DNA of 64,000 bases from Minisyncoccota bacterium (GTDB taxonomy: Bacteria; Patescibacteriota; Minisyncoccia; Phycocordibacterales; SBAW01): NCBI GenBank assembly GCA_035546615.1, contig DASZWM010000006.1, positions 1 to 64,000 of the forward strand. Reading direction: 5' to 3'. Every line of letters starts with the position of its first letter. Positions within the stretch are counted from its first letter, which is position 1. This document shows, piece by piece, positions 1,069-51,293 of this stretch. The position numbers and the translations under genes were made by a program. The notes under the pieces are model-generated. The model did not search any database. It was not told the DNA's origin and saw only the letters and a list, made by a program, of their open reading frames with translations.

Positions 1069-1841
1069 TGAGCAAGGTTTCACCTTGCTCAGACTCAGAA
1101 CTACTCTTTATAGGATAGCCACTCCGTTATGTTTTGCCTGAAGTTCTCCGGCGTTTCAAAATACCGTGGGAGGGCCGTTGATTCCAATACTGTCGCTTCC
1201 GGGCGCCCACGCCCCAGGTAATCGGGATAGCTTGAGTACGCATACCTCTCCAAATATGCGTCGGTTTTTTTCCTATTCTTGATCCCGTGCTCTCTCCAGT
1301 TTTTGTCGATGAGTTTTACCGGATTCAGATGTATATACGAAAGGAGATATTTCAGATACCGGTCTTCTTCGGCGTGTTCCGATTTGAATACCCCCTGGAA
1401 CAGTGCGCCATTCCTTTCGTAGCGTTTATTAAAATACATCGTGTATCCCGTCGTCAGTTTCTGCATGAATCTGCTGATACCGTCGCCACCTTTCTCGCGT
1501 ACCAGCAGGTGAAAGTGGTTCGGCATCAGGCAATATGCAACGATATCGACGAGCGTCTCTCCGCGTTCTTGCGTCAACGCGCGCCCAAGCAAGGTGAAAT
1601 CTTTCGCAGGGTGGGCACGCTGCATATTGTCGATGCGAATTGGTTCTTTAGAATTGGCGAGATAGAGCAGGCATATAAAACGCTCGTAATCTTCCGTATG
1701 CACGAATACCTTTCTTTTGTCCGTGCCGCGGTTGTATAGGTGATAGAACTCTTGGGGAGCGAAAGGCGCGCGATTGGTCATAGGGGCAATATAGTAATGA
1801 ATCCCCATTTGAGCAAGGTTTAACCTTGCTCAAATGGGGAT
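1069..1841. mobile_element. tnpA-only IS200-like / RAYT unit bounded by near-identical palindromic hairpins
   Basis: Left hairpin TGAGCAAGGT-ttc-ACCTTGCTCA (~1069..1091). Right 41-nt perfect palindrome ATCCCCATTTGAGCAAGGTT-t-AACCTTGCTCAAATGGGGAT (~1801..1841) containing the tnpA start codon. Both share core GAGCAAGGTT. Confidence 0.6.
1101..1808 (-). CDS. IS200/IS605-family HUH (Y1) transposase, REP-associated tyrosine transposase (RAYT)-like
   Basis: YHLYNRG N-terminal motif; HUH motif in MPNHFHLLV; downstream Tyr-containing region. Locally lower GC. Flanked by hairpins. Confidence 0.7.
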   Translation of the reverse strand: MGIHYYIAPMTNRAPFAPQEFYHLYNRGTDKRKVFVHTEDYERFICLLYLANSKEPIRIDNMQRAHPAKDFTLLGRALTQERGETLVDIVAYCLMPNHFHLLVREKGGDGISRFMQKLTTGYTMYFNKRYERNGALFQGVFKSEHAEEDRYLKYLLSYIHLNPVKLIDKNWREHGIKNRKKTDAYLERYAYSSYPDYLGRGRPEATVLESTALPRYFETPENFRQNITEWLSYKE

Positions 1842-1871: not shown

Positions 1872-2891
1872 ATGGCGGTACGCGTTGCTATTAACGGGTT
1901 CGGGCGCATCGGACGCGCTTTTTTGCGCGCTTCCTGGGACGACCCGGCAGTAGAAGTAGTAGCTATCAACGACCTCGGCGATATCTCAAACTTGGTGTAT
2001 CTCCTCCAGTACGACAGCGTATACCGCACGTTCTCGCAGAAAGTCTCGGTTGAGAGCGGCCAGCTGATGGTTGGCGACAAGCATATCCATATCACCGCGG
2101 AAAAAGACCCGACCAAGCTGCCGTGGAGCTCTCTTAACATAGACGTGGCGGTAGAATCCACAGGAGTATTCGACTCCTACGAGAAGGCGAGCGCGCATCT
2201 GACCGCCGGCGCCAAGCATGTGGTCATTTCAGCTCCCGTGAAGGACGAAATGGCGGGTGCGGGGACAGTGCTCATGGGGGTGAACGAGGACAAGCTCGGC
2301 GCCTGCCAGATAACCTCCAACGCCTCGTGCACCACCAATTCAGTCTCGCCGCTCATCGCAATACTCGACGAAAAGATCGGCATCGAGAAGGCATTGCTCA
2401 ATACCACGCACGCCTATACCGCGACGCAGTCGATAGTCGACTCGCCGGTCAAGGGCTCCGACTTTCGCCGAGGCCGCGCCGCCGCGCAGAACATGTCGCC
2501 GTCATCGACGGGCGCCGCGGTCGCGGTGACAAAGGCGTACGAGCAGCTTACCGGAAAATTCGACGGCATTTCCATTCGCGTGCCGGTGGTGGCGGGCTCT
2601 ATCGCCGATGTTACCTTCCTCGCCAAGCGCGATACGACCGCCGAGGAAGTGAATTCGATACTCGAAGCCGCCGCACAAGAGGACCGCTGGAAGGGTATAT
2701 TCGACGCCACGCGCGAACAGCTGGTTTCGGGCGACATCATCGGCAACGGCCACGCGTCCATCGCCGACCTGGGGCTAACGCGCGTCGTGGGCGGCAACCT
2801 GGTGAAGGTCCTGGCCTGGTACGATAACGAAATGGGGTATACGCACACCCTCATCAGGCACGTAAAGAAAGCGGGCGCCCAAGCCAAGTAA
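1872..2891 (+). CDS. gap: Glyceraldehyde-3-phosphate dehydrogenase
   Basis: N-terminal NGFGRIGR Rossmann motif; active-site SNASCTTN; 339 aa. Confidence 0.92.
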   Translation: MAVRVAINGFGRIGRAFLRASWDDPAVEVVAINDLGDISNLVYLLQYDSVYRTFSQKVSVESGQLMVGDKHIHITAEKDPTKLPWSSLNIDVAVESTGVFDSYEKASAHLTAGAKHVVISAPVKDEMAGAGTVLMGVNEDKLGACQITSNASCTTNSVSPLIAILDEKIGIEKALLNTTHAYTATQSIVDSPVKGSDFRRGRAAAQNMSPSSTGAAVAVTKAYEQLTGKFDGISIRVPVVAGSIADVTFLAKRDTTAEEVNSILEAAAQEDRWKGIFDATREQLVSGDIIGNGHASIADLGLTRVVGGNLVKVLAWYDNEMGYTHTLIRHVKKAGAQAK

Positions 2892-3348: not shown

Positions 3349-4050
3349 ATGGTAGAGATAATCCCCGCCATTCTCACGAAGTCGTACAAGGAGCTGGAGC
3401 GCCAGGCTGAAATCGCGCATGCGTTCGCTAAAAAGATCCAGATAGACGTGGTAGACGGCGTCTTCGCCAAGCACGCAACCTGGCCGTACAAGGACGGCTC
3501 TAATTTTCAGAAAATAAAAGAGGAAGAGCACGGCCTGCCGTTCTGGGAGGACCTCGATTTCGAGTTCGACCTCATGATAGAGAACCCGCACGAGCACGCG
3601 ATGGACTACGTTCGCGCGGGCGCCTCGCACATCGTCATCCATGCGGAGGCGACCGGCGCGGTCGAGGCCTTGCAGAAGCTTGCGGAGCTGCGGGGGGACG
3701 ACGCCGGCGCGTTTTCCATCACGACGGGCCTGGCGCTTCTGCCGAACATGCAGCCCGACGTGCTGGAGTCATTCGATACGCTGTTCGATTATGTGCAGGT
3801 GATGGGGATAAACACCGTCGGCCGCCAGGGCGAGCCGTTCGACGCTCACTCCGTGGCGCTTGTGGAGCGCCTGCGTCACCGCTACCCGGACCTTGTCATA
3901 CAGGTGGACGGCGGCGTGAATACGGAGACGGCCGGAGCGCTCGCGCACGCAGGTGCGAACCGGCTTATCGCCGGCTCCGCTATTTTTGGTGCGGATAACC
4001 CGGAGGAGGCGTACAAAGCGTTGTATACTTTAGCGAATGGCTCTCAGTGA
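3349..4050 (+). CDS. rpe: Ribulose-phosphate 3-epimerase-like
   Basis: IIPAIL.., IDVVDG, FDLM, ASHIVIHAEA, VDGGV, AGSAIF motifs parallel Rpe TIM-barrel motifs; 233 aa. Confidence 0.7.
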   Translation: MVEIIPAILTKSYKELERQAEIAHAFAKKIQIDVVDGVFAKHATWPYKDGSNFQKIKEEEHGLPFWEDLDFEFDLMIENPHEHAMDYVRAGASHIVIHAEATGAVEALQKLAELRGDDAGAFSITTGLALLPNMQPDVLESFDTLFDYVQVMGINTVGRQGEPFDAHSVALVERLRHRYPDLVIQVDGGVNTETAGALAHAGANRLIAGSAIFGADNPEEAYKALYTLANGSQ

Positions 4051-4894
4051 GGCGCGTATCGTTGAAATAGAGGATAAGGCTCGGGCAATACGCGAGACGA
4101 TACTCGAAATGCTCGTTGCCGCAGGCTCCGGCCATACGGCCGGCCCTCTGGGCATGGCCGATATCTTCGCCTCGTTCTACTTTCATATCCTCAACCACGA
4201 TCCGCAGAACCCGGAGCTTCCGGAGCGCGACCGTCTCATACTTTCAAACGGCCACATCGTACCGGTTCGCTATGCCGCAATGGCCCACGCGGGCTATTTT
4301 CCGGTGGAAGAATGCCTGACGCTGCGTAAGTTCGGCAGCCGGCTCCAGGGCCACCCCGAGCGCACGAGGCTTCCGGGGCTTGAGACCACCTCAGGCCCGC
4401 TCGGTTCAGGTTTGGGCCAGGCGGCAGGCATCGCTTACGGCGCGCGCATGGACAAGAAGCGCTTCAGAACCTACGTTGCCATGTCCGACGGCGAGCAGGA
4501 TGCCGGAAATATCTGGGAGTCGGCGATGTTCGCGGGCAACAACAAGCTCAGCAACCTCACCGCGGTCATCGACCGCAACAACATCCAGATAAACGGCATG
4601 ACGGAGGACGTGATGCCGGTCGAGAACCTGCGCGCCAAGTACGAGGCCTTCAATTGGCACGTGCTTGAGGTGGACGGGCACAATATAAAGCAGTTCTGCG
4701 ATGCGGTGGACGAGGCAAAAGCCATTTACGAAAAGCCGACGGTCATCATCGCGCACACCATACCGGGCAAGGGGGTGAAGGAGATAGAATTCGACTACAA
4801 GTGGCACGGCAAGCCGCCCACCAAGGACGAGGCGAAGAAGTTCCTCAACGAACTGCGCACCATGGGCGGGAAAATTGAGAGCGAACATCAGTAA
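4037..4894 (+). CDS. tkt: Transketolase, N-terminal (TPP-binding) subunit of split enzyme
   Basis: GSGHTAGPLGMADIF; GHPE; SDGEQDAGNIWE. 285 aa split form as in archaea and some reduced bacteria. Confidence 0.88.
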   Translation: MALSEARIVEIEDKARAIRETILEMLVAAGSGHTAGPLGMADIFASFYFHILNHDPQNPELPERDRLILSNGHIVPVRYAAMAHAGYFPVEECLTLRKFGSRLQGHPERTRLPGLETTSGPLGSGLGQAAGIAYGARMDKKRFRTYVAMSDGEQDAGNIWESAMFAGNNKLSNLTAVIDRNNIQINGMTEDVMPVENLRAKYEAFNWHVLEVDGHNIKQFCDAVDEAKAIYEKPTVIIAHTIPGKGVKEIEFDYKWHGKPPTKDEAKKFLNELRTMGGKIESEHQ

Positions 4895-8058: not shown

Positions 8059-8718
8059 ATGGAACTGGCAGTCACAAAGCGCGATACCTCGACGAAGGCG
8101 AAATCCTTGCGCAGCAAGGGCCTTTTGCCTGGCGTCATATACGGCCGTTCCGAGGAGTCCACTCCCATCACTGTAGACCGCAAGACCTTCGACAAGCTCT
8201 TCCACGCGGCGGGCGAGTCCACCGTCATCACGCTCTCGGGCCTCGGCGAGGAGAAGGACGCGCTCATCCACGAAGTGGCTGTTGACGCCGTTACCGGCAC
8301 GGCGGTCCATGTCGATTTTTACGCGATTCAGAAGGGCCAGACCGTTACCGTATCCATTCCGCTGGAGTTTGACGGCGAGTCCCAGGCGGTGAAGGAGCTC
8401 GGCGGCATTTTGGTGAAGGTCATGCACGAGCTTGAGATAGAATGCCAGCCGAAGGACCTCCCGCACGCCATCCATGTCGATATTTCGAAGCTCGCGACGC
8501 TTGAGGACCAGATAAAGGTGAAGGACCTCCAGGGCATTCCCGCATCGGCCAAGATCTCCGTCGACCCCGAGGAAGTCGTGGCCATGATCGACGTCGCCAA
8601 GGAGGAGCCGGTCGAGGAAGCCGCGGCCGACATCTCCGCTATCGAGATCTCCGAAGACCGCGGCAAGAAGGAAGAGGAAGGCGAAGGAGCCGCTCCGGCC
8701 GCAGAAGCGAAAGAATAG
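8059..8718 (+). CDS. rplY: 50S ribosomal protein L25 / general stress protein Ctc, with acidic C-terminal tail
   Basis: TKAKSLRSKGLLPGVIYG N-terminus typical of L25/Ctc; E/A-rich tail. Confidence 0.85.
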   Translation: MELAVTKRDTSTKAKSLRSKGLLPGVIYGRSEESTPITVDRKTFDKLFHAAGESTVITLSGLGEEKDALIHEVAVDAVTGTAVHVDFYAIQKGQTVTVSIPLEFDGESQAVKELGGILVKVMHELEIECQPKDLPHAIHVDISKLATLEDQIKVKDLQGIPASAKISVDPEEVVAMIDVAKEEPVEEAAADISAIEISEDRGKKEEEGEGAAPAAEAKE

Positions 8719-15965: not shown

Positions 15966-16727
15966 TTGAGCGATACTTTACGAATCCGTATGTCAGACAC
16001 GCCTACCGGCCACATCCATCCGATTTCAAGCCTTATCCGCGAGGCAAACCGCATATTTGCGGGCATGGGATTCTCCTTCGCCGAGGGCCCGCTCCTGGAG
16101 ACAGAATGGTACAACTTCGACGCGCTCAACGTGCCGAAGGACCATCCCGCGCGCGACATGCAGGACACCTTTTTTATAAAGGACGCGCCGGGCCACGTAT
16201 TGCGCACGCACACCTCGCCTGTCCAGGTGCGCTATATGGAAGCGCAGGCGAAGAAGGGCATCATGCCGCCGTATCGCATCATCGTGCCGGGCCGCGCGTT
16301 CCGCAACGAGGCGACCGACATGACGCACGAGGCCGAGTTCTTCCAGATAGAAGGGCTGGCGGTCGGGCCTGACATCACGCTTGGCAATCTCAAGGGCACG
16401 CTCGAGCAATTCTTCAAGGAATTATTCAAAGGCTCGGTCGAAGTGCGCTTCCGCCCGAGCTTCTTCCCGTTCGTCGAGCCGGGAGTCGAGGTTGATATGC
16501 GCCTGAGCGGCAATGACGTGCCCGAAAAGCTCAAGGATAAGTGGATAGAGATAATGGGCGCCGGCATGGTGCATCCGAATGTGCTAAAGAGCGCTGGGGT
16601 AGATCCGGTTCAGTACCGCGGTTTCGCCTTCGGCATGGGCCTCGACCGCCTCGCGATGCTCCGGTGGGGCATCGACGATATCCGCCTCATGCACTCCGCC
16701 GACCTGCGCTTCATCAATCAATTCTAG
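15966..16727 (+). CDS. pheS: Phenylalanyl-tRNA synthetase alpha subunit, catalytic core only (N-terminal coiled-coil arm absent)
   Basis: Class II core motifs (DHPARDMQDTFF; FRNEATDMTHEAEFFQIEG; GMGLDRLAML); 253 aa. Confidence 0.88.
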   Translation: MSDTLRIRMSDTPTGHIHPISSLIREANRIFAGMGFSFAEGPLLETEWYNFDALNVPKDHPARDMQDTFFIKDAPGHVLRTHTSPVQVRYMEAQAKKGIMPPYRIIVPGRAFRNEATDMTHEAEFFQIEGLAVGPDITLGNLKGTLEQFFKELFKGSVEVRFRPSFFPFVEPGVEVDMRLSGNDVPEKLKDKWIEIMGAGMVHPNVLKSAGVDPVQYRGFAFGMGLDRLAMLRWGIDDIRLMHSADLRFINQF

Positions 16728-17029: not shown

Positions 17030-18849
17030 AAATCTCGCGCCGCTGGATTCAAAACTTTTTCAATGACGAACTGTCGAACACGCAGGCGCTTGCCGACGCG
17101 CTTACGTTCCACGCCTTCGAGATAGACGGCATCGAGCCGTATTCTGGACTTACGAAGTCCAGAATTTTGGACGAGATACTGGACGTTAAGGTTACCCCTA
17201 ACCGCGGGCACGATTGCCTGTGTCACCGCGGCATCGCAAAAGAACTTTCAGCCATTCTTAAGCTTCCGCTTAAGCAAGACCCGCTCGGCAAGAAGCCGGA
17301 GCTTGTCCCAGCTACCGATGCCGTTTCCGTAACGCTTGAGGACCCGGCGCTTAGCCCGCGCTACATCGCCGGATACATGAAGAACGTGAAGGTCGGTCCG
17401 TCGCCTGACTGGCTTGTAGAGGCCCTTGAAGCCATGGGCCAGCGCTCAATCAACAATGTCGTTGATGCGACGAACATGGTGATGTTCAATCTCGGCCAGC
17501 CCTTGCACGCCTTTGACGCGGGCAAGCTCGCGCAGAAAGACGGCAAATATGGCATCGTCGTCCGCAGGGCGCGTGCGGGAGAGAAGATCCTCGCGCTCGA
17601 CCAGAAAGAGTATGTCCTTCAGGATTCCATGCTCGTTATTGCCGACGGCAACAAGGACGAAGCTATCGGCATCGCCGGCGTGAAGGGCGGCACGCCGGCG
17701 GGCATTACCGAAGCGACGACCGACATCATCATCGAGTCCGCCAACTTCAACGGCGTGTCCGTCCGTAAGACCGCCCAGGCGCTGAAGCTGCGCACCGACG
17801 CGTCCAGCCGCTTTGAGCAGGGCCTCAGCCCCGAGCTGTGCGCATACGGCATGCAGCAGGTCGTTGATCTCATAAAAACAATCGCAAGCGGGGAACTGGT
17901 CGGCTTTGCCGATGTATATCCGGCGCCCCAAGGGCCCGCCTATGCTGCAGTATCGGTAGAGAAGGTCAATCAGATACTGGGTACTCAGCTCACCGGCACG
18001 GAGGTGGCGGACGCTTTTGCGCGCCTCGGCTTCGCATACAAAGAAGAGAATGGAGTATTCCAGGTCACGGTCCCGTTCGAGCGCCTCGACATAACGATCC
18101 CGGAAGATTTGGTCGAGGAGGTCGGCCGCATCGTCGGCTACGACAAGGTACCCGCTGTGCCTCTGCCTCCCATGCCCCCCTCTTCCCAAGCAAGCGCGAG
18201 CTTCTCGGCGACAGAGCGCGTCCGCGCGGATCTCATAAAGCAGGGATATTCGGAAGTTCTTACGTCCGTATTTTCAGACAAGGGCGAGCGCGCGGTGTTA
18301 AATAAAGTGGACAGCGTAAAGCCGTATTTGCGCAGCAATCTCACCGATGGACTTACCGAAGCTCTGAAAAAGAACATTCCGAACAAAGACCTGCTTGGAC
18401 TTAAGGAAGTAAAGCTGTTCGAGATAGGAACTGTCTGGAAAGGTGATAAGGAGGAAGTAGTGGTCGGCACCGTAAGCGAAAAGAAGCAGGCCGAAGAAAA
18501 AGCGCTGAGCGAATATGCGGCTGATTCGGCTCCTGTACAAGACCTGCCGCTTTCGCAAACGGAGCGGTACCAGTCATTCTCCAAGTATCCCTACATCGTG
18601 CGCGATATCGCTATGTGGACTCCTGCACGTACGACGCCCGAATCGGTTCAGGAACTTATACAGGCTGAGGCGGGGGAGTTGTGCACAAAAGTATCGCTCT
18701 TCGACCAGTTCCAAAAAGGAGAAAAGACTTCGCTCGCGTTCCGCCTAATATTCCAATCATTTGAAAAGACGCTCACGGAAGGGGATGCAAACCAGGCGAT
18801 GGAAAAGGTAGCGGCAAAACTGAAAGAAAAAGGCTTCGAGATCAGGTAA
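17026..18849 (+). CDS. pheT: Phenylalanyl-tRNA synthetase beta subunit (short, 607 aa)
   Basis: N-terminal tRNA-binding (VTPNRGHDCL), B5 domain, C-terminal FSKYPYIVRDIAMW anticodon-binding region. Confidence 0.88.
   Translation: MKISRRWIQNFFNDELSNTQALADALTFHAFEIDGIEPYSGLTKSRILDEILDVKVTPNRGHDCLCHRGIAKELSAILKLPLKQDPLGKKPELVPATDAVSVTLEDPALSPRYIAGYMKNVKVGPSPDWLVEALEAMGQRSINNVVDATNMVMFNLGQPLHAFDAGKLAQKDGKYGIVVRRARAGEKILALDQKEYVLQDSMLVIADGNKDEAIGIAGVKGGTPAGITEATTDIIIESANFNGVSVRKTAQALKLRTDASSRFEQGLSPELCAYGMQQVVDLIKTIASGELVGFADVYPAPQGPAYAAVSVEKVNQILGTQLTGTEVADAFARLGFAYKEENGVFQVTVPFERLDITIPEDLVEEVGRIVGYDKVPAVPLPPMPPSSQASASFSATERVRADLIKQGYSEVLTSVFSDKGERAVLNKVDSVKPYLRSNLTDGLTEALKKNIPNKDLLGLKEVKLFEIGTVWKGDKEEVVVGTVSEKKQAEEKALSEYAADSAPVQDLPLSQTERYQSFSKYPYIVRDIAMWTPARTTPESVQELIQAEAGELCTKVSLFDQFQKGEKTSLAFRLIFQSFEKTLTEGDANQAMEKVAAKLKEKGFEIR
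17141..17165. repeat. 25-nt perfect palindrome ATTCTGGACTTACGAAGTCCAGAAT inside pheT (codes YSGLTKSRI)
   Basis: Read directly; same core recurs at 43719 and 27626. Confidence 0.9.
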
Positions 18850-24480: not shown

Positions 24481-24873
24481 ATGAACGACCACGGTAAAAA
24501 GGGGGTTCTGAAGCAAGTCATTGCTGAGGACCTCGGTGGCAAGACTCAGAAGTGGTGGCAAGGCAAGCTGCATGTTTACATGCGGCAAACCGAGCTTGCC
24601 CGGGAAGATCTTACAACGGTCAAAACCGAACTCGCAGCTGCTGTCGCCAAGGGCGAATCGGCCAAGAGCCAGGTTGCAGCCCTGGAAGAGCGCGTTACTC
24701 GCCTCGAAACCGAACTGGCTGAAGCCGGACGGAAAGAGAGCGAGTTCCGCGCGCAGATCGCTGAACTGGAAACGGAACAGTGGGAACCTGGTGATGTTGA
24801 AGATATCTTCAACATGATGACGGGTCCCTGGGAGACTGCCATCGCCAGCATGGAAAAGGAGCACGGGCTTTGA
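24481..24873 (+). CDS. Coiled-coil protein
   Basis: Heptad-rich ELA/ELE repeats; overlaps next ORF by 4 nt. Confidence 0.45.
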   Translation: MNDHGKKGVLKQVIAEDLGGKTQKWWQGKLHVYMRQTELAREDLTTVKTELAAAVAKGESAKSQVAALEERVTRLETELAEAGRKESEFRAQIAELETEQWEPGDVEDIFNMMTGPWETAIASMEKEHGL

Positions 24874-26091: not shown

Positions 26092-26122
26092 GCAGAGCGA
26101 TCGATATGATCGATCGCTCTGC
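26092..26122. promoter_or_regulatory. 31-nt perfect palindrome GCAGAGCGATCGAT-atg-ATCGATCGCTCTGC
   Basis: Read directly; between small secreted ORF and the repeat-protein gene; not followed by a clean T-run. Confidence 0.4.
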
Positions 26123-26232: not shown

Positions 26233-27531
26233 ATGAACAGCAATATTATAAACATAGGTCGTAAGATAAGCGTTGCTCTTATAGCGCTTATAGTTCTCGT
26301 GTTGCCTTTCGCTTCGGTGCAGGCAGCTGACTACTCTGACTATGATTATGTCGGGACCTCGTATTATGGTTCTGACTCTTCTAGCGATTACGTCGGGACT
26401 TCCTATTATGATTCCGGTTCTTCAAATAGTGGGAGCGATTACGTAGGAACGTCTTACTATACTCCTGATACTTCCAATGACTATGATTACGTTGGAACTT
26501 CGTACTATGAAGATAACTCTTCTGACTATGATTATGTCGGAACCTCCTATTATGGCTCTGGCTGCACCACGAACTGTGGCGGCGGTGGAGGTGGCGGCGG
26601 GGGCGGCGGATGCCGTTCTAACTGCACCCCTCCTCCTCCGAAGCCGGCCCCGGTTTGCGACCTCTCGGTCAGCCCTTCGCGCGTAGATTACGGCGATTCC
26701 GTAACTATCTCCTGGACCACGTCCAACGCCATCAGCGCCTTCCTCGCCGGTTTCGGCACGGTGTCCACTAACGGCTCCCGCACCAGCGGCGCTATCTATG
26801 GCACCAAGACCTACACTCTTACCGCGACCGCAAGCGGCGGCCGCACGGTAACCTGCTCCAAGACCGTTACAGTCGAGCGCGAGCATGAGCACACGCCCGA
26901 TCTCGAGTGCAAGCTTAAGGCTTCCGACACGAGCATCGAGCGCGGAGACTCGGTCCGCATCACCTGGTCTAGCGACGGCGCTGACTACGGCTACATCACT
27001 CCGGATATCGGTGATGTCGATGAAAGCGGTTCCGACACGGTAGAACCTCGCTCTGATACGACTTACAAGGGTACCTTCTACAACGACGACGGCGACAAGG
27101 TTACCTGCTCGGTCAAGGTAAACGTTGACCGCGAGTACAATCCGCCGGTCTACGAGAATCCGACTCCGTACATTAACCTCTCCGCTGTTCCGTACACCGG
27201 CCTTGACCTCGGTCCTGTCGGTACGGTTCTCTACTGGGCGTTCCTCATCGCATGGTGCCTCGTTGCCGCATACCTTATCGCGGTCAAGCGCGTCCACATG
27301 AGCGTGTACCGCTGGTACAAGAAGGCGCTCTTCGGCGAGGAGGTGCACTTCGCGCCGGCGCAGGAAGTCTCCTTCGCAGGGTTCTCCCACGCTGATGTCG
27401 CAAAGCTCGCAGAGATGCTTCGCGGCGCAGTCGCTCCCTCGCACGCTTCGGCACCTGTTGCTGCAGCTCCCGCAGGCGATGCGATAGACCCGTTCATCCT
27501 CTCGCAGATCCATCGCACTCCGCGCTCCTAA
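26233..27531 (+). CDS. Surface repeat protein: 5x DYVGTSYY repeats, poly-Gly/Cys spacer, two Ig-like C...C domains, TM, cytoplasmic tail
   Basis: Signal peptide; repeats D-Y-(D-Y)-V-G-T-S-Y-Y separated by S/D-rich spacers; CGGGGGGGGGGGGC; PPPPKP; two ~70-aa Cys-bounded beta-rich modules; VLYWAFLIAWCLVAAYLIAV TM. 5' third is AT-rich. Confidence 0.5.
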   Translation: MNSNIINIGRKISVALIALIVLVLPFASVQAADYSDYDYVGTSYYGSDSSSDYVGTSYYDSGSSNSGSDYVGTSYYTPDTSNDYDYVGTSYYEDNSSDYDYVGTSYYGSGCTTNCGGGGGGGGGGGCRSNCTPPPPKPAPVCDLSVSPSRVDYGDSVTISWTTSNAISAFLAGFGTVSTNGSRTSGAIYGTKTYTLTATASGGRTVTCSKTVTVEREHEHTPDLECKLKASDTSIERGDSVRITWSSDGADYGYITPDIGDVDESGSDTVEPRSDTTYKGTFYNDDGDKVTCSVKVNVDREYNPPVYENPTPYINLSAVPYTGLDLGPVGTVLYWAFLIAWCLVAAYLIAVKRVHMSVYRWYKKALFGEEVHFAPAQEVSFAGFSHADVAKLAEMLRGAVAPSHASAPVAAAPAGDAIDPFILSQIHRTPRS

Positions 27532-27590
27532 AGCGCCGAAGCGGATGCCTCTGCGCAAGCAGGGAACAAGCCTCCAAAATATTGTCAGCA

Positions 27591-27617
27591 AAATCCCGCC
27601 GTATGGCGGGATTTTGC
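27591..27617. terminator. Bidirectional terminator AAAATCCCGCC-gtat-GGCGGGATTTT
   Basis: A/T tracts on both sides of GC stem; between convergent repeat-protein gene and thrS. Confidence 0.6.
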
Positions 27618-27625
27618 GTTACAAC

Positions 27626-27652
27626 TATTCTGGACTTCGTAAGTCCAGAATA
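27626..27652. repeat. Palindromic element copy TATTCTGGACTTCGTAAGTCCAGAATA (opposite centre orientation), abutting thrS stop codon
   Basis: 27-nt palindrome; centre CGT instead of ACG; intergenic between convergent genes. Confidence 0.9.
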
Positions 27653-28900
27653 TTATTTGCGCTCGGCTATCTCTTCCTTCAGTTTTGAAACTATTTCGGC
27701 AATGGGGAGTGCTCCAAGTTTGCCTTCGCGGCCCTCAAGGCTTGCGGTGTTGGCTGCAACTTCCGCGTCGCCGATCACAAGCGTGTAGGGGATTTTCTGC
27801 GTCTTTGCCTCGCGTATCTTCTTGCCTAGGCTCTCATTGCTTTCGTCGATGTCCGCGCGGATGCCAGCCCTCTTGAGCTCCTGCGCGACCTTTGCGGCAA
27901 ATTCTTTGTGCGGCTCGGCAATAGGAATGACGCGAGCCTGAAGGGGAGAAAGCCAGGTGGGAAGCGTGCCGTCGTAGTGCTCAAGCAGTACCGCGATGCA
28001 GCGCTCGAGGCTGCCGGCTATAGCCGCGTGCACCATCACGATGCGCTCCTTCTCGCCCTTTTCATTGATGCAGGTAAGGTCGAAGCGCTCGGGGATGTTC
28101 ATGTCGAGCTGGATGGTCGCGACCTGCCACTCGCGCCCGGCGGAATTCTTTGCCATGAAATCGAGCTTGGGCCCGTAGAGCGCCGCCTCGCCCGGGCCTT
28201 CAAACGTGTCGGCCCCGCGTTCCTCGGCAAGGCTGCGCAACTCGCTCTCGGCCTTGTCCCATATCTCCGGGGTACCTAGATATTTCTCGGGAGTCGCCGG
28301 GTCGCGGAAGGAAAGCCGTATACGCAATGTGAAGCCGAATGTCTTGTAGAAGGTGTCAACGATATCCCAGATCTTTAGGAATTCCTCGCGCACCTGACTA
28401 GTGCGGCAGAATACGTGTGCGTCGTCCTGAGCAAAACCCAAAACGCGAGTGAGGCCGCCAAGCTCTCCGGACTGCTCGTCGCGGTAGACCATGGTGGTCT
28501 CGGCGTAGCGCTGCGGCATCTCGCGGTACGAGAACGGCCGCCGCGCGAATATCTGCGTGTGGTGCGGGCAATTCATCGGCTTCATCGCGTACTCGCGGCC
28601 CTCGCGCGACGTTATCTTGAAGAGGTCATCGGCGAACTTTTCCCAGTGGCCGCTTGTCTCATAGAGGTCTTTCTTGGTGATGTGGGGGATGGTGACGCGC
28701 TCGTAGCCTCGCGCTTCGCGCATCTCCCAAATAAAGCGGTCGAGCTCCTGGCGCAGAATAGTGCCGCGCGGGGTCCACAGCGGCAGGCCCGAGCCGACGA
28801 GGTCGGAGAAGGTGAAGAGGTCGAGCTCCTGGCCAATTTTGCGGTGGTCGCGTTCTTCCATAGATAGTTCCAAGAGTATCAAGTGTGGGGATTTTTGCAA
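27653..28900 (-). CDS. thrS: Threonyl-tRNA synthetase, catalytic + anticodon-binding domains only (no N-terminal TGS/editing domains)
   Basis: PMNCPHH, RVLGFAQDDAHVFC class II motifs; 415 aa versus ~640 aa canonical. Confidence 0.88.
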   Translation of the reverse strand: MQKSPHLILLELSMEERDHRKIGQELDLFTFSDLVGSGLPLWTPRGTILRQELDRFIWEMREARGYERVTIPHITKKDLYETSGHWEKFADDLFKITSREGREYAMKPMNCPHHTQIFARRPFSYREMPQRYAETTMVYRDEQSGELGGLTRVLGFAQDDAHVFCRTSQVREEFLKIWDIVDTFYKTFGFTLRIRLSFRDPATPEKYLGTPEIWDKAESELRSLAEERGADTFEGPGEAALYGPKLDFMAKNSAGREWQVATIQLDMNIPERFDLTCINEKGEKERIVMVHAAIAGSLERCIAVLLEHYDGTLPTWLSPLQARVIPIAEPHKEFAAKVAQELKRAGIRADIDESNESLGKKIREAKTQKIPYTLVIGDAEVAANTASLEGREGKLGALPIAEIVSKLKEEIAERK

Positions 28901-35651: not shown

Positions 35652-36344
35652 ATGCAGAAAGACTTTACGGCATTTGAGGCTTCCCTCGGCCTGACCTTCC
35701 GCGACCCGGCGCTTTTGCGCCAGGCTTTTACGCATCGCTCGTACCTCAATGAACACCGTTCTGAGGGCAGCGCGCACAACGAACGCCTCGAGTTCCTCGG
35801 CGACGCCGTGCTCGAGCTCATCGCCACGCACTTTTTGTACGAGAAATTCCCCGCGCATCCGGAGGGCGACCTGACGGCATTCCGCGCCTCGCTCGTGAAT
35901 GCCGTAACGCTCGGCGGCGTGGCGGCGGAAATAGGCATGAACGACTACCTGCTTCTTTCAAAGGGCGAAAGCAAGGACAACGGTCGCGCCCGCAGCGTGC
36001 TCCTGGCCAATGCCATTGAGGCGCTGGTGGGCGCGATATATCTTGACCAGGGCTATGATGCCGCGAAGGCCTTTATCGAAAAGCATCTCTTCCCCAAACT
36101 CGACGAGATAGTGCAGAAGAAGCTTTGGCGCGACGCCAAGTCGGTGCTTCAGGAGCGCGCGCAGGAAACGGAAGGCGCCACGCCATCGTACTCGGTCATG
36201 ACCGAGTCCGGCCCCGACCACGACAAGCAGTTCGTCGTCGGCGTCTACGTAAAAGACACGATGCTGGCCAAGGGAAGCGGCAAGTCAAAGCAGGAGGCGG
36301 AGCAGGACGCCGCCCGCAACGCGCTTGAAGCCAAGGGGTGGTAA
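35652..36344 (+). CDS. rnc: Ribonuclease III
   Basis: ERLEFLGDAVLEL catalytic signature; C-terminal dsRBD; 230 aa. Confidence 0.9.
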   Translation: MQKDFTAFEASLGLTFRDPALLRQAFTHRSYLNEHRSEGSAHNERLEFLGDAVLELIATHFLYEKFPAHPEGDLTAFRASLVNAVTLGGVAAEIGMNDYLLLSKGESKDNGRARSVLLANAIEALVGAIYLDQGYDAAKAFIEKHLFPKLDEIVQKKLWRDAKSVLQERAQETEGATPSYSVMTESGPDHDKQFVVGVYVKDTMLAKGSGKSKQEAEQDAARNALEAKGW

Positions 36345-42660: not shown

Positions 42661-43500
42661 TTGCTTTTCCCGCCCTCCTTTATACTGTGGAGTATGTATC
42701 CTCCTGTTTCTGACCTGCTCGCAGAGCTCTCTTTATTTCCCGGAAGGGAAGACGGCTTGCGGAAAATTAAAAGGTATAGCAATGAGAAAGTAGCTTTTTA
42801 CCGCTCTTCTGATTTTTCTCATAGCAAGAGAGTGGCGTGGCTTGTATATAGTCTCATCCCATTATTATCAGAGGTAGATAAGACTTTTGATATAGGGCGC
42901 GCTGTGGCTATGGCGCTCGTGCACGACGATGCTGAACTGATAACGGGTGATCATCAAGCTGGTAATAAAAGCAAAATGACCAAAGAGCAGCTTGCTGCAA
43001 TTGCTGACGAAGAACGTGAAGCGATTGCCGCTTTGGCAAAGAGATATCCAAAAACTCTCGGCGGATATGTCTATCAGGACCTAGTACAAGATCTCGCTGA
43101 TCTAAAGAATTCTGAAGCTCATTTTGTTAAGTACTTTGATCGTTTTGATGCTTTGGGGGAGACTTACCATGAACTCTTTGCAGGGAATGTGGTTTGGACG
43201 CAAAACGTAGTTAATGAGTGGGGCATCATTCCCACACCTTTTATGTATTACTACGATAGGCTGCCGCCCATGGTTGAGAAGTATCCGATCCTGACTGCTT
43301 TAAAAGGAAAACATGTATTCTTCGATGTCCCTGAAGCCAGAGAATGGGAATCATTTGTCCTGACTCGTCAGCCTCATACAAAGGATTCAATACTTGCGTC
43401 TACTGGTCATAGGCAATATGATGCCTGGCGCTCTGTTGTTATTGATTCTGCAGATCAAGAAGAAATCGCAAATCTCTACTCTCAACAAGAATACCTATGA
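42661..43500 (+). CDS. HD-domain phosphohydrolase (YfbR/5'-deoxynucleotidase-like), AT-rich insert
   Basis: H...HD motif (ALVHDDAELITGDH); gene visibly AT-rich relative to flanks; stop overlaps trmD start (ATGA). Confidence 0.65.
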   Translation: MLFPPSFILWSMYPPVSDLLAELSLFPGREDGLRKIKRYSNEKVAFYRSSDFSHSKRVAWLVYSLIPLLSEVDKTFDIGRAVAMALVHDDAELITGDHQAGNKSKMTKEQLAAIADEEREAIAALAKRYPKTLGGYVYQDLVQDLADLKNSEAHFVKYFDRFDALGETYHELFAGNVVWTQNVVNEWGIIPTPFMYYYDRLPPMVEKYPILTALKGKHVFFDVPEAREWESFVLTRQPHTKDSILASTGHRQYDAWRSVVIDSADQEEIANLYSQQEYL

Positions 43501-44153
43501 ATTTCCATGTCGTAACGCTTTTTCCGGAAGTTATCGAGGCCTATACGAACGCTTCGATACTGGGCCGTGCCCAGAAAGAGAAGAAGTTTTCCGTTAAGAC
43601 CTACCAGCTGCGCGATTTCGTCAGCAATAAATGGGGCAAGGTAGACGAGCGCCCATACGGCGGCGGCCCGGGCATGGTTATCCAGGCCGAGCCGGTCATC
43701 AGGGCAGTCCAGAAAATATCTGGACTTACGAAGTCCAGAATTCGGCCGAAGGTCATTATTACTGCGGCAGGCGGCAAGCCTTTGACCAACGCGTATGCCA
43801 AAGCGCTTTTGAAGCAAAAGGACGTCATAATCGTTTGCGGCAGGTACGAAGGCATCGACGCCCGGGCAAAAAAAGTGCTCAAGGCCGAAGAAGTCTCCGT
43901 TGGGCCGTACATTCTGACCGGGGGCGAGGTTCCGGCCTTGGCAATCATTGATGCGACCGCTCGGCAGATAAAGGGCGTTTTGGGCAAGTTCGAGTCCCTC
44001 GAGGAGTCCCGGGTCGCAAGCCACGAGATATACACCCGCCCCGAGGTCCTGAAAGCAAAAGGAAAGAACTACGCGGTCCCGAAGGTCCTCCTCTCCGGCC
44101 ATCATGCAAAGATGGACCAGTGGAAAGAAAAGAAACGCAGCAAACCCCTATAA
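43497..44153 (+). CDS. trmD: tRNA (guanine37-N1)-methyltransferase
   Basis: MNFHVVTLFPEV...; RPYGGGPGMV; CGRYEGIDAR SPOUT-knot motifs. Confidence 0.9.
   Translation: MNFHVVTLFPEVIEAYTNASILGRAQKEKKFSVKTYQLRDFVSNKWGKVDERPYGGGPGMVIQAEPVIRAVQKISGLTKSRIRPKVIITAAGGKPLTNAYAKALLKQKDVIIVCGRYEGIDARAKKVLKAEEVSVGPYILTGGEVPALAIIDATARQIKGVLGKFESLEESRVASHEIYTRPEVLKAKGKNYAVPKVLLSGHHAKMDQWKEKKRSKPL
43719..43739. repeat. Palindromic element copy TCTGGACTTACGAAGTCCAGA inside trmD (codes ISGLTKSRI)
   Basis: Identical 21-nt core and identical reading frame as the pheT copy. Confidence 0.9.

Positions 44154-44315: not shown

Positions 44316-51293
<6,978 letters not shown>

Follow-up and report, generated by a model that had tools for sequence, protein, structure and literature searches.

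How does one palindrome come to be read, in the same codon phase, within two unrelated essential genes of a single bacterium? The question arises in a stretch of 64,000 nucleotides from a Minisyncoccota bacterium (GenBank assembly GCA_035546615.1, contig DASZWM010000006.1, positions 1 to 64,000), hereafter called the window, in which a short hairpin lies inside pheT and inside trmD, and a third copy is found at the end of thrS (Table 1). In our view, the hairpin is likely to be a repeat of the repetitive extragenic palindrome (REP) type that belongs to Patescibacteria, the candidate phyla radiation (CPR), is tied to a Y1 transposase, and lies in frame in tolerant loops of essential genes.

The copies in pheT and trmD (copies 1 and 2) share the core palindrome TCTGGACTT-ACG-AAGTCCAGA, which is in frame in both genes and in identical codon phase (TCT GGA CTT ACG AAG TCC AGA). 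In copy 1 (ATTCTGGACTTACGAAGTCCAGAAT), a perfect stem of 11 bp surrounds the ACG, the peptide context in PheT is YSGLTKSRI, and the predicted RNA fold has -16.6 kcal/mol (z -5.8), the hairpin stability among the copies ranging from -12 to this value. Copy 2 encodes SGLTKSR, residues 75-81 of TrmD, in the context ISGLTKSRI. Copy 3 has the same stem as the other two with the centre inverted (CGT on the plus strand, ACG in the sense of thrS), and it directly adjoins the thrS stop codon, a place typical of classic REPs, with a stop codon on one side and a terminator on the other. The coordinates and sequences of all three copies, as well as the codon phase shared by pheT and trmD, had been given in a preliminary description of this DNA and were confirmed.

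A search with the pattern TCTGGACTTNNNAAGTCCAGA, allowing up to 2 mismatches, gave 3 matches in the window, while none of the 100 dinucleotide-preserving shuffles contained a match, which rules out a chance origin of the window copies; no fourth copy was found in the whole 64 kb, even at 3 mismatches. The window palindrome is real and non-random. Convergent codon use is contradicted by the orthologs, which either lack the peptide or carry the same or a co-varying palindrome, and never encode the peptide by other codons. The preliminary description had also argued that protein homology does not account for the identity at the nucleotide level, and this was borne out. Chance, convergent codons and membership of the Rickettsia palindromic elements (RPEs), the last considered below, are explanations with practically no probability left.

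Several other familiar classes of sequence were inspected as well. At the gathering threshold, the only Rfam match in the window is a tRNA-Thr, and the hairpin has no Rfam family. In regard to a phage origin, no exact copy of the palindrome is present among 2.9 million viral contigs. Miniature inverted-repeat transposable elements have terminal inverted repeats around a non-palindromic body together with a target-site duplication, while here the entire element is one hairpin, and no direct repeat was seen beside the window or the metagenome copies. An intrinsic terminator was rejected, as the stem has 44% G+C and the coding copies have no T tract; the terminator scan flags the thrS copy alone, on the plus strand only, where its tail runs into thrS.

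Outside the window, the hairpin forms a dispersed family. In what follows, labels of the form L0xx denote the loci or contigs compared and P0xxx the protein orthologs, and the family counts cover the window, the fetched contigs and the database scans. The family consensus is N4-GACTT-ACG-AAGTC-N4, often lengthened by ATAT/ATAT, and a longer consensus, ATATCTGGACTT-ACG-AAGTCCAGATAT, is frequent among metagenome copies. A scan of 185,579 species-representative genomes gave 8 loci: the metagenome-assembled genome (MAG) CAYGFK01 holds 6 copies on 3 contigs, 4 of these inside 1.5 kb, one further locus belongs to a Saccharimonas MAG, and the other 4 come from unrelated phyla and have different centres, in a number close to the chance expectation. 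The metagenome scan added 18 loci, and about 20 metagenome copies have an ACG or CGT centre, on contigs of 36-61% G+C. The element is not confined to the three copies on which the preliminary description had based its claim of a repeat, other genomes having many more. Between genes it stands in either orientation, and the copies seen are singlets, forming neither the doublets known as REPINs nor bacterial interspersed mosaic elements (BIMEs).

What is conserved across the family is the pairing together with the invariant centre T-ACG-A, and not the peptide. When any perfect 9-bp stem around T-ACG-A was searched for in the fetched DNA, the stem variants ATTGACTT..AAGTCAAT, ACGGACTT..AAGTCCGT, GTTCGACTT..AAGTCGAAC, GTGGGACTT..AAGTCCCAC, TCTGGGTTT..AAACCCAGA and GTTCGACCT..AGGTCGAAC were found; their flanks are AT-rich (ATAT or TAT) and otherwise unconserved. 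When 20 variants were aligned, all 180 cells of the 9 core pairs proved to be paired, both sides have changed in 7 of the 9 pairs, and the 12-pair helix reaches a co-variation score of 0.447 against 0.143 in shuffles (0 of 500 shuffles reach 0.447), figures to be read with the caveat that most of the 20 variants came from a search that demanded pairing.

The tie to a transposase comes from the loci in which copies cluster around one gene. In L006, four copies are found around an open reading frame (ORF) of 226 aa, one of them inside it; its product has the motifs NHYHLL and YIHLNP and matches Pfam Y1_Tnp (IS200-like, PF01797; 27.8 bits, cut-off 23). In NCBIfam, these transposases match nothing but the REP-associated tyrosine transposase (RAYT) family, REP_Tyr_transpos, and this below its cut-off, and the PDB gave no match by sequence for the transposase. 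Homologs 54-67% identical to the L006 protein were found by tblastn in the palindrome-bearing loci L014, L016 and L021, with the motifs NH(F/Y)HLL and YIHLNP conserved among the aligned transposases; the four contigs are unrelated to one another. In L006, L014 and L016, one hairpin lies 15-27 nt from either gene end, with CGT upstream and ACG downstream on the gene strand; L021 has the upstream hairpin only, in the same orientation. Furthermore, the genes of L006, L016 and L021 hold an in-frame internal hairpin at one common position of the protein, read as LDLRSPD or TDLRSPY, and in L021 the variant ACGGACTT..AAGTCCGT is present both within the gene and just upstream of it.

The window itself contains one RAYT-like gene, whose product has 38% identity with the transposases that have the TCTGGACTT hairpin at their flanks in other contigs (tblastn, E 5e-37) and which stands in the same order as in L006 (transposase, gap, rpiB). 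Its flanking palindrome is of a second family, GCAAGGTTTNACCTTGC, variant GCAAGGTT..AACCTTGC, and the degenerate palindrome in its coding sequence corresponds to the protein position where the L006, L016 and L021 transposases hold their own hairpin. Because the window gene uses the second-family palindrome both at its flanks and internally, each transposase lineage has its own hairpin. A back-translation scan of the internal site in 150 RAYT-like representatives gave a weak enrichment, 1.9 palindromes per 100 residues against about 0.7, and other conserved motifs were equally high. A further palindrome of the GCAAGGTT family, the one that flanks the window transposase gene, was observed as a second coding palindrome in the pheT gene of L037 (CAGCAAGGTTAAACCTTGCTG, 8519..8539).

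Such an arrangement resembles REP/RAYT systems in that the repeat is a short palindrome (here 21-27 nt), the transposase gene stands between two inverted copies near its start and stop, variants of the hairpin change along with those of the transposase while complementary changes keep the pairing, and one copy lies between a stop codon and a terminator. The REP-rayt-REP organisation is what defines RAYTs, and REP/RAYT co-evolution through complementary mutations has been described by Nunvar et al. (2010, PMC2817692); REPINs are a REP-related system (Bertels and Rainey 2011, PMC3116915). On the other hand, the present stems are perfect and their 3-nt centre is fixed as ACG, the host belongs to the CPR, the copies are singlets rather than REPIN doublets or BIMEs, and the transposase gene holds an in-frame copy of its own. 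The system thus shares most but not all of the features that define REP/RAYT systems.

Several points weigh against a REP-type assignment. No GTAG, GT(A/G)G or CGTC head stands beside the palindromes, as it does in REPs, and the transposases score 35-50 bits, under the NCBIfam REP_Tyr_transpos cut-off of 80. The only RAYT-like gene of the window is flanked by the other palindrome, and the enzyme for the TCTGGACTT family was not seen in the window. The copies are also sparse, 3 per 64 kb in the window and 1 per about 20 kb in relatives, where the sole copy is the coding one. Most copies in the window and its close relatives are coding, and 2 of the 3 window copies are intragenic, unlike the predominantly extragenic copies of classical REP families. 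The presence of the hairpin is patchy on a neighbour-joining tree of PheT (loop masked), a pattern that does not separate inheritance from repeated hits. Finally, the activity of the transposase on the hairpin is something we infer. With these points taken into account, a REP-type repeat is still the explanation that we find probable.

A comparison with RPEs is also of interest, as the preliminary description had pointed to them and held that nothing like the element had been described outside Rickettsia. RPEs are roughly 100-150 bp long and add a peptide segment of tens of residues, and we know of no transposase associated with them. The likeness is a palindromic repeat carried in frame by genes that stay functional, and the hairpin does behave as the suggested miniature mobile palindrome, tolerated in frame in an RPE-like manner. 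Membership of the RPE family itself was not upheld: the element, 21-27 nt long and linked to a Y1 transposase gene, is several-fold shorter and comes from a different phylum, and its anatomy is that of REP/RAYT, with a short hairpin whose inverted copies stand on either side of an IS200-like Y1 transposase gene, a separation made on size and anatomy. The supposed uniqueness to Rickettsia has to be given up as well, since in-frame palindromes as such are already known: Di Nocera, De Gregorio and Rocco (2013, PMC3733652) catalogued intragenic REPs in several species, lying wholly within ORFs of known proteins and read in frame, and proposed that they form flexible linkers or loops. Those REPs are GTAG- or CGTC-tagged, come from Opitutus, Thioalkalivibrio, Rickettsia and Thauera, and are in many cases dimers encoding 20-30 aa; the word 'orthologous' is absent from the paper, which treats neither occupancy of the same position in orthologs nor matching variants across the genes of one genome (PMC3733652).

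In regard to the coding sites, comparison with orthologs agrees with the earlier view that the hairpins sit in loops of variable length. In 120 TrmD orthologs (80-91% identical), the stretch bounded by 'AVxKI' and 'KVIIT' varies in length, from about 5 to over 25 residues, and SGLTKSR is present only in the four closest. An AlphaFold (AF2) model built from 40 sequences predicts that residues 75-81 of TrmD form the last part of a helix, at its C-terminus, and the loop leading to the following strand. As for PheT, 'FEIDGIE' and 'DxILDVKVTPNRGHD' are 0-4 residues apart in most orthologs, and the window protein has about 8 more. Two PheT proteins that are 87% identical, P0246 with the insert and P0257 without it, differ there by one net indel of exactly 7 codons, with the flanking residues also altered; no target-site duplication is present, and the clean 24-27-nt insertion that the preliminary description had proposed to look for was not seen. 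L038, the relative whose PheT is closest (74% identical), is without a hairpin in pheT, at the 3' end of thrS or elsewhere in its 21.8 kb, and there the terminator hairpin adjoins the thrS stop codon with no copy 3 in between.

The TrmD loop is a general hot spot for palindromes. Peptides that can encode a palindrome on back-translation (e.g., SSIYGT, TSIYRR, MSIYRH, DLIYQV) occur there in 26 of the 120 orthologs, at 1.79 per 100 residues in the loop compared to 0.24 elsewhere in the same proteins; the equivalent figures for PheT, 1.97 and 1.13, have too high a background to be useful. In L034, an unrelated perfect palindrome of 24 nt was seen in the DNA of this loop (2841..2864). Palindromes centred on ATATAT, with the peptide xxIYxx and each with a different stem, were noted in the loop of P0015, P0020, P0029, P0051, P0074, P0097, P0099, P0106, P0113 and L034, the check in DNA having been made for L034 only.

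Other coding sites have been occupied as well. A holB-like ORF of L026 (DNA polymerase III delta'; 3800..4519, plus strand) contains two in-frame tandem hairpins ('..PKSGLTKSRFDVGPTRSNIG..'), read as SGLTKSR and VGPTRSN, while its ortholog in L013 has none in the gene and two copies just upstream. In two Saccharimonas-like contigs (L008, L015), a penicillin-binding-protein gene encodes SGLPKSR in its N-terminal tail, with the family stem and the centres CCC and CCA, one synonymous base apart.

At orthologous sites, the coding copies are either strictly conserved or changed in step. Between the window and L027, all 21 hairpin bases of trmD are identical, 7 of them being third positions, while third codon positions are 49% identical overall (P ~0.007); the hairpin of L029 is identical too, and third-position identity across L027 and L029 is 49-54%. 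The coding copies are not neutral relics and they are not decaying. Five further loci (L031, L033, L035, L036, L037) hold perfect stem variants at the same trmD or pheT codon sites as the window (Table 1). In GCA_964587895.1, one variant, TCTGGGTTT-ACG-AAACCCAGA (GGGTTT/AAACCC), is found in both trmD (L031) and pheT (L035), just as TCTGGACTT (GGACTT/AAGTCC) is found in both genes of the window. SGLTKSR is likewise shared by P0002 (TrmD) and P0246 (PheT), which probably come from one genome. Since pheT and trmD of one genome share one stem variant, a common source is indicated rather than gene-specific selection. The VRPTRSN variant, with similar flanks, occurs in two PheT proteins that are only 62% identical.

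These observations bear on the possibility that the hairpin is a gene-local structural element, such as a translational pause, an RNA-processing site or a protein-binding site, selected in each gene independently of any transposase. Nucleotide conservation beyond what the protein needs, perfect stems with compensatory changes at orthologous sites, the stability of the RNA hairpins, and the fact that the window hosts and neighbours (pheT, trmD, thrS) are all tRNA-related would suit such an element. However, the same sequence is present in intergenic DNA and around transposase genes in many genomes, the hairpin is absent from these sites in most orthologs, close ones included, the sharing of one stem variant by two unrelated genes of a genome speaks for a common source, and no Rfam match was obtained. 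We consider a gene-local element unlikely.

A change of another kind separates the trmD copies of L039 (480..502) and L033 (10222..10244), which have the same stem, TGTTCGACTT..AAGTCGAACA, at the same codon, with the centre CGT in the former and ACG in the latter, both being in frame (VRLRKSN and VRLTKSN). The flip takes three substitutions, or else a single inversion or re-insertion. Local template switching (quasi-palindrome correction) together with loop inversion could make and keep palindromes with no movement between sites; one inversion in place of three substitutions, the perfection of all stems and the many unrelated perfect palindromes in the one TrmD loop are all compatible with this. 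Such a process, though, cannot give identical sequences of 21-25 nt in unrelated genes and in many genomes of 36-61% G+C, and it leaves the flanking of transposase genes unexplained, so that as the whole explanation it is very unlikely.

The sequence of the centre raises the alternative of RNA editing by TadA. According to this alternative, the hairpin mimics the anticodon arm of tRNA-Arg(ACG), the ACG codon (Thr) in the mRNA is partly edited to ICG (Ala), and the element is kept for recoding or regulation. TadA A-to-I editing of mRNA needs a YTACGAA loop in a stem-loop NNNNN-YT[A]CGAA-NNNNN, similar to tRNA-Arg2's anticodon arm, and Thr to Ala is the second most common TadA recoding (PMC12255301). 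The 17-nt centre TGGAC-TTACGAA-GTCCA is an exact fit to the published motif, with a perfect YTACGAA loop and a flanking stem of at least 5 bp, the codon phase would give Thr to Ala, and nothing in the family apart from T-ACG-A is invariant. Although the three window copies lie on opposite DNA strands, each reads ACG in the sense of the gene that it occupies or follows, and sense-ACG is likewise the reading of the coding copies in pheT, trmD, the holB-like gene (two) and the transposase genes.

Against editing stand the L039 trmD copy, whose centre is flipped to CGT in frame on the same stem as in L033, the penicillin-binding-protein copies with CCC or CCA centres, and the intergenic copies in both orientations, both of which flank the transposase gene. 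In other lineages, the TrmD loop holds unrelated palindromes without UACG; in the reading frame of the transposase the edit would be synonymous; and the predicted minimum-energy fold closes two further pairs, leaving a loop of 3 nt. Known sites are single-copy gene features in Gammaproteobacteria and Streptococcus (PMC12255301, PMC5630033), not dispersed repeats. Neither a tadA gene or motif nor a tRNA-Arg(ACG) gene was found within the fetched DNA, and editing leaves unexplained why pheT and trmD of one genome share a stem variant. We therefore regard TadA editing as improbable. Little probability can also be assigned to a combined form, in which a transposase-dispersed hairpin is at the same time a portable mimic of the tRNA-Arg(ACG) arm that makes TadA sites, at which the Thr of SGL[T]KSR would become Ala in PheT, TrmD and the holB-like protein.

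In regard to the mechanism by which a REP-type repeat would reach such sites, enzymes of the IS200/IS605 and RAYT groups act on single-stranded DNA. The transposase would recognise the hairpin in this form and seed or replace copies. Insertions elsewhere in compact genomes would mostly be lethal, and the survivors would be those at intergenic spots and in permissive loops; in the coding frames that survive there would be no stop codons, and the peptide would be hydrophilic, such as SGLTKSR. The octapeptide itself is probably a passenger. Coding copies could be kept perfect and matched to the variant of their genome by renewal from a master sequence or by correction between or within copies. 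Three routes to the matching variants may be considered: copies may be lost precisely and the current master sequence inserted again at a few hot spots, copies may exchange sequence with one another, or each copy may be selected to fit the enzyme as it changes. No one of these is favoured by the data. Template switching inside the palindrome may additionally help to hold individual stems perfect.

To our knowledge, work on REP/RAYT systems has dealt almost exclusively with Proteobacteria and has treated the repeats as extragenic DNA. Our literature search found no paper joining RAYTs with CPR bacteria, and three aspects are undescribed in the searchable literature: a REP/RAYT-type system in CPR bacteria, the change in step at orthologous coding sites, and a REP-type centre (TTACGAA) that matches the TadA RNA-editing motif, for which one flipped coding copy argues against a general editing role. 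The observations point to a related REP/RAYT system in CPR/Patescibacteria, with a large share of the copies seen in these gene-dense genomes being coding; in several lineages, such copies occupy the same permissive loops of conserved essential proteins. Being perfect and carrying the variant of their own genome, the coding copies offer a natural experiment on the renewal of REP populations, in which a different pattern is expected from each of three processes: precise replacement at hot spots, conversion between copies, and selection by the cognate enzyme. Where CPR proteins have short lineage-specific inserts, these can be footprints of mobile elements rather than adaptive features. If the TadA reading were true, mobile DNA would spread RNA-recoding sites through essential genes of a CPR bacterium.

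Table 1. Hairpin copies, host genes and transposase-associated features of the window, and stem variants at orthologous coding sites of other loci.
Feature	Position or locus	Strand	Description
Hairpin copy 1	17141..17165	+	perfect 25-nt palindrome ATTCTGGACTT-ACG-AAGTCCAGAAT, in pheT frame
Hairpin copy 2	43719..43739	+	perfect 21-nt palindrome TCTGGACTTACGAAGTCCAGA, in trmD frame
Hairpin copy 3	27626..27652	-	perfect 27-nt palindrome TATTCTGGACTTCGTAAGTCCAGAATA; between thrS stop codon and terminator-like hairpin
Terminator-like hairpin, GC-rich	27588..27617	.	common to convergent genes; separated from the thrS stop codon by copy 3
pheT, 607 aa	17026..18849	+	Pfam B3_4, B5, FDX-ACB; host of copy 1
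trmD, 218 aa	43497..44153	+	Pfam PF01746; host of copy 2
thrS, 415 aa, short form	27653..28900	-	copy 3 starts right after the stop codon
RAYT-like IS200/IS605-family Y1 transposase, 235 aa	1101..1808	-	motifs NHFHLL, YIHLNP; NCBIfam REP_Tyr_transpos 49.9 bits, cut-off 80
Second-family palindrome (TGAGCAAGGTTTCACCTTGCTCA)	1069..1091	.	just downstream of RAYT-like gene
Second-family palindrome, 41 nt, 20-bp stem	1801..1841	.	start of RAYT-like gene
Degenerate internal second-family palindrome	1589..1605	-	in RAYT-like coding sequence
trmD site	L031		ATATCTGGGTTTACGAAACCCAGATAT; SGFTKPRY
trmD site	L033		TGTTCGACTTACGAAGTCGAACA; VRLTKSN
pheT site	L035		TTCTGGGTTTACGAAACCCAGAA; SGFTKPR
pheT site	L036		TGTGGGACTTACGAAGTCCCACA; VGLTKSH
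pheT site	L037		TGTTCGACCTACGAGGTCGAACA; VRPTRSN

Despite the hairpin, the ORFs of pheT and trmD are intact, with every Pfam domain present. The window's PheT and TrmD each match a protein of a Candidatus Paceibacterota MAG at 100% (P0241 and P0001, respectively). Both PheS and ThrS are shortened synthetases: pheS (15966..16727, plus strand) encodes only 253 aa, and ThrS consists of the class II core and the anticodon-binding domain, without the N-terminal editing or TGS region. Directly upstream of trmD, and overlapping it, lies an ORF of 279 aa (42661..43500, plus strand) with a G+C content at third codon positions of 0.39, compared to about 0.7-0.85 in most neighbours; relatives have a NADAR-domain gene in its place, and the ORF may be a foreign replacement. 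The rpoB and rpoC domains are joined in one ORF of 2325 aa (44316..51293, plus strand), a gene fusion that is also present in the relatives L027 (2284 aa) and L034 (2296 aa).

Further perfect palindromes of the window, unrelated to both families described here, were found at 26092..26122, 24794..24815 and 36190..36207, with stems of 14, 11 and 9 bp, respectively; the 14-bp one is in intergenic DNA and the 9-bp one within the RNase III gene. The ORF at 26233..27531 (plus strand) has repeated 'DYVGTSYY' units and a glycine run after a signal-like N-terminus, and to judge from its sequence the product looks like a secreted repeat protein.

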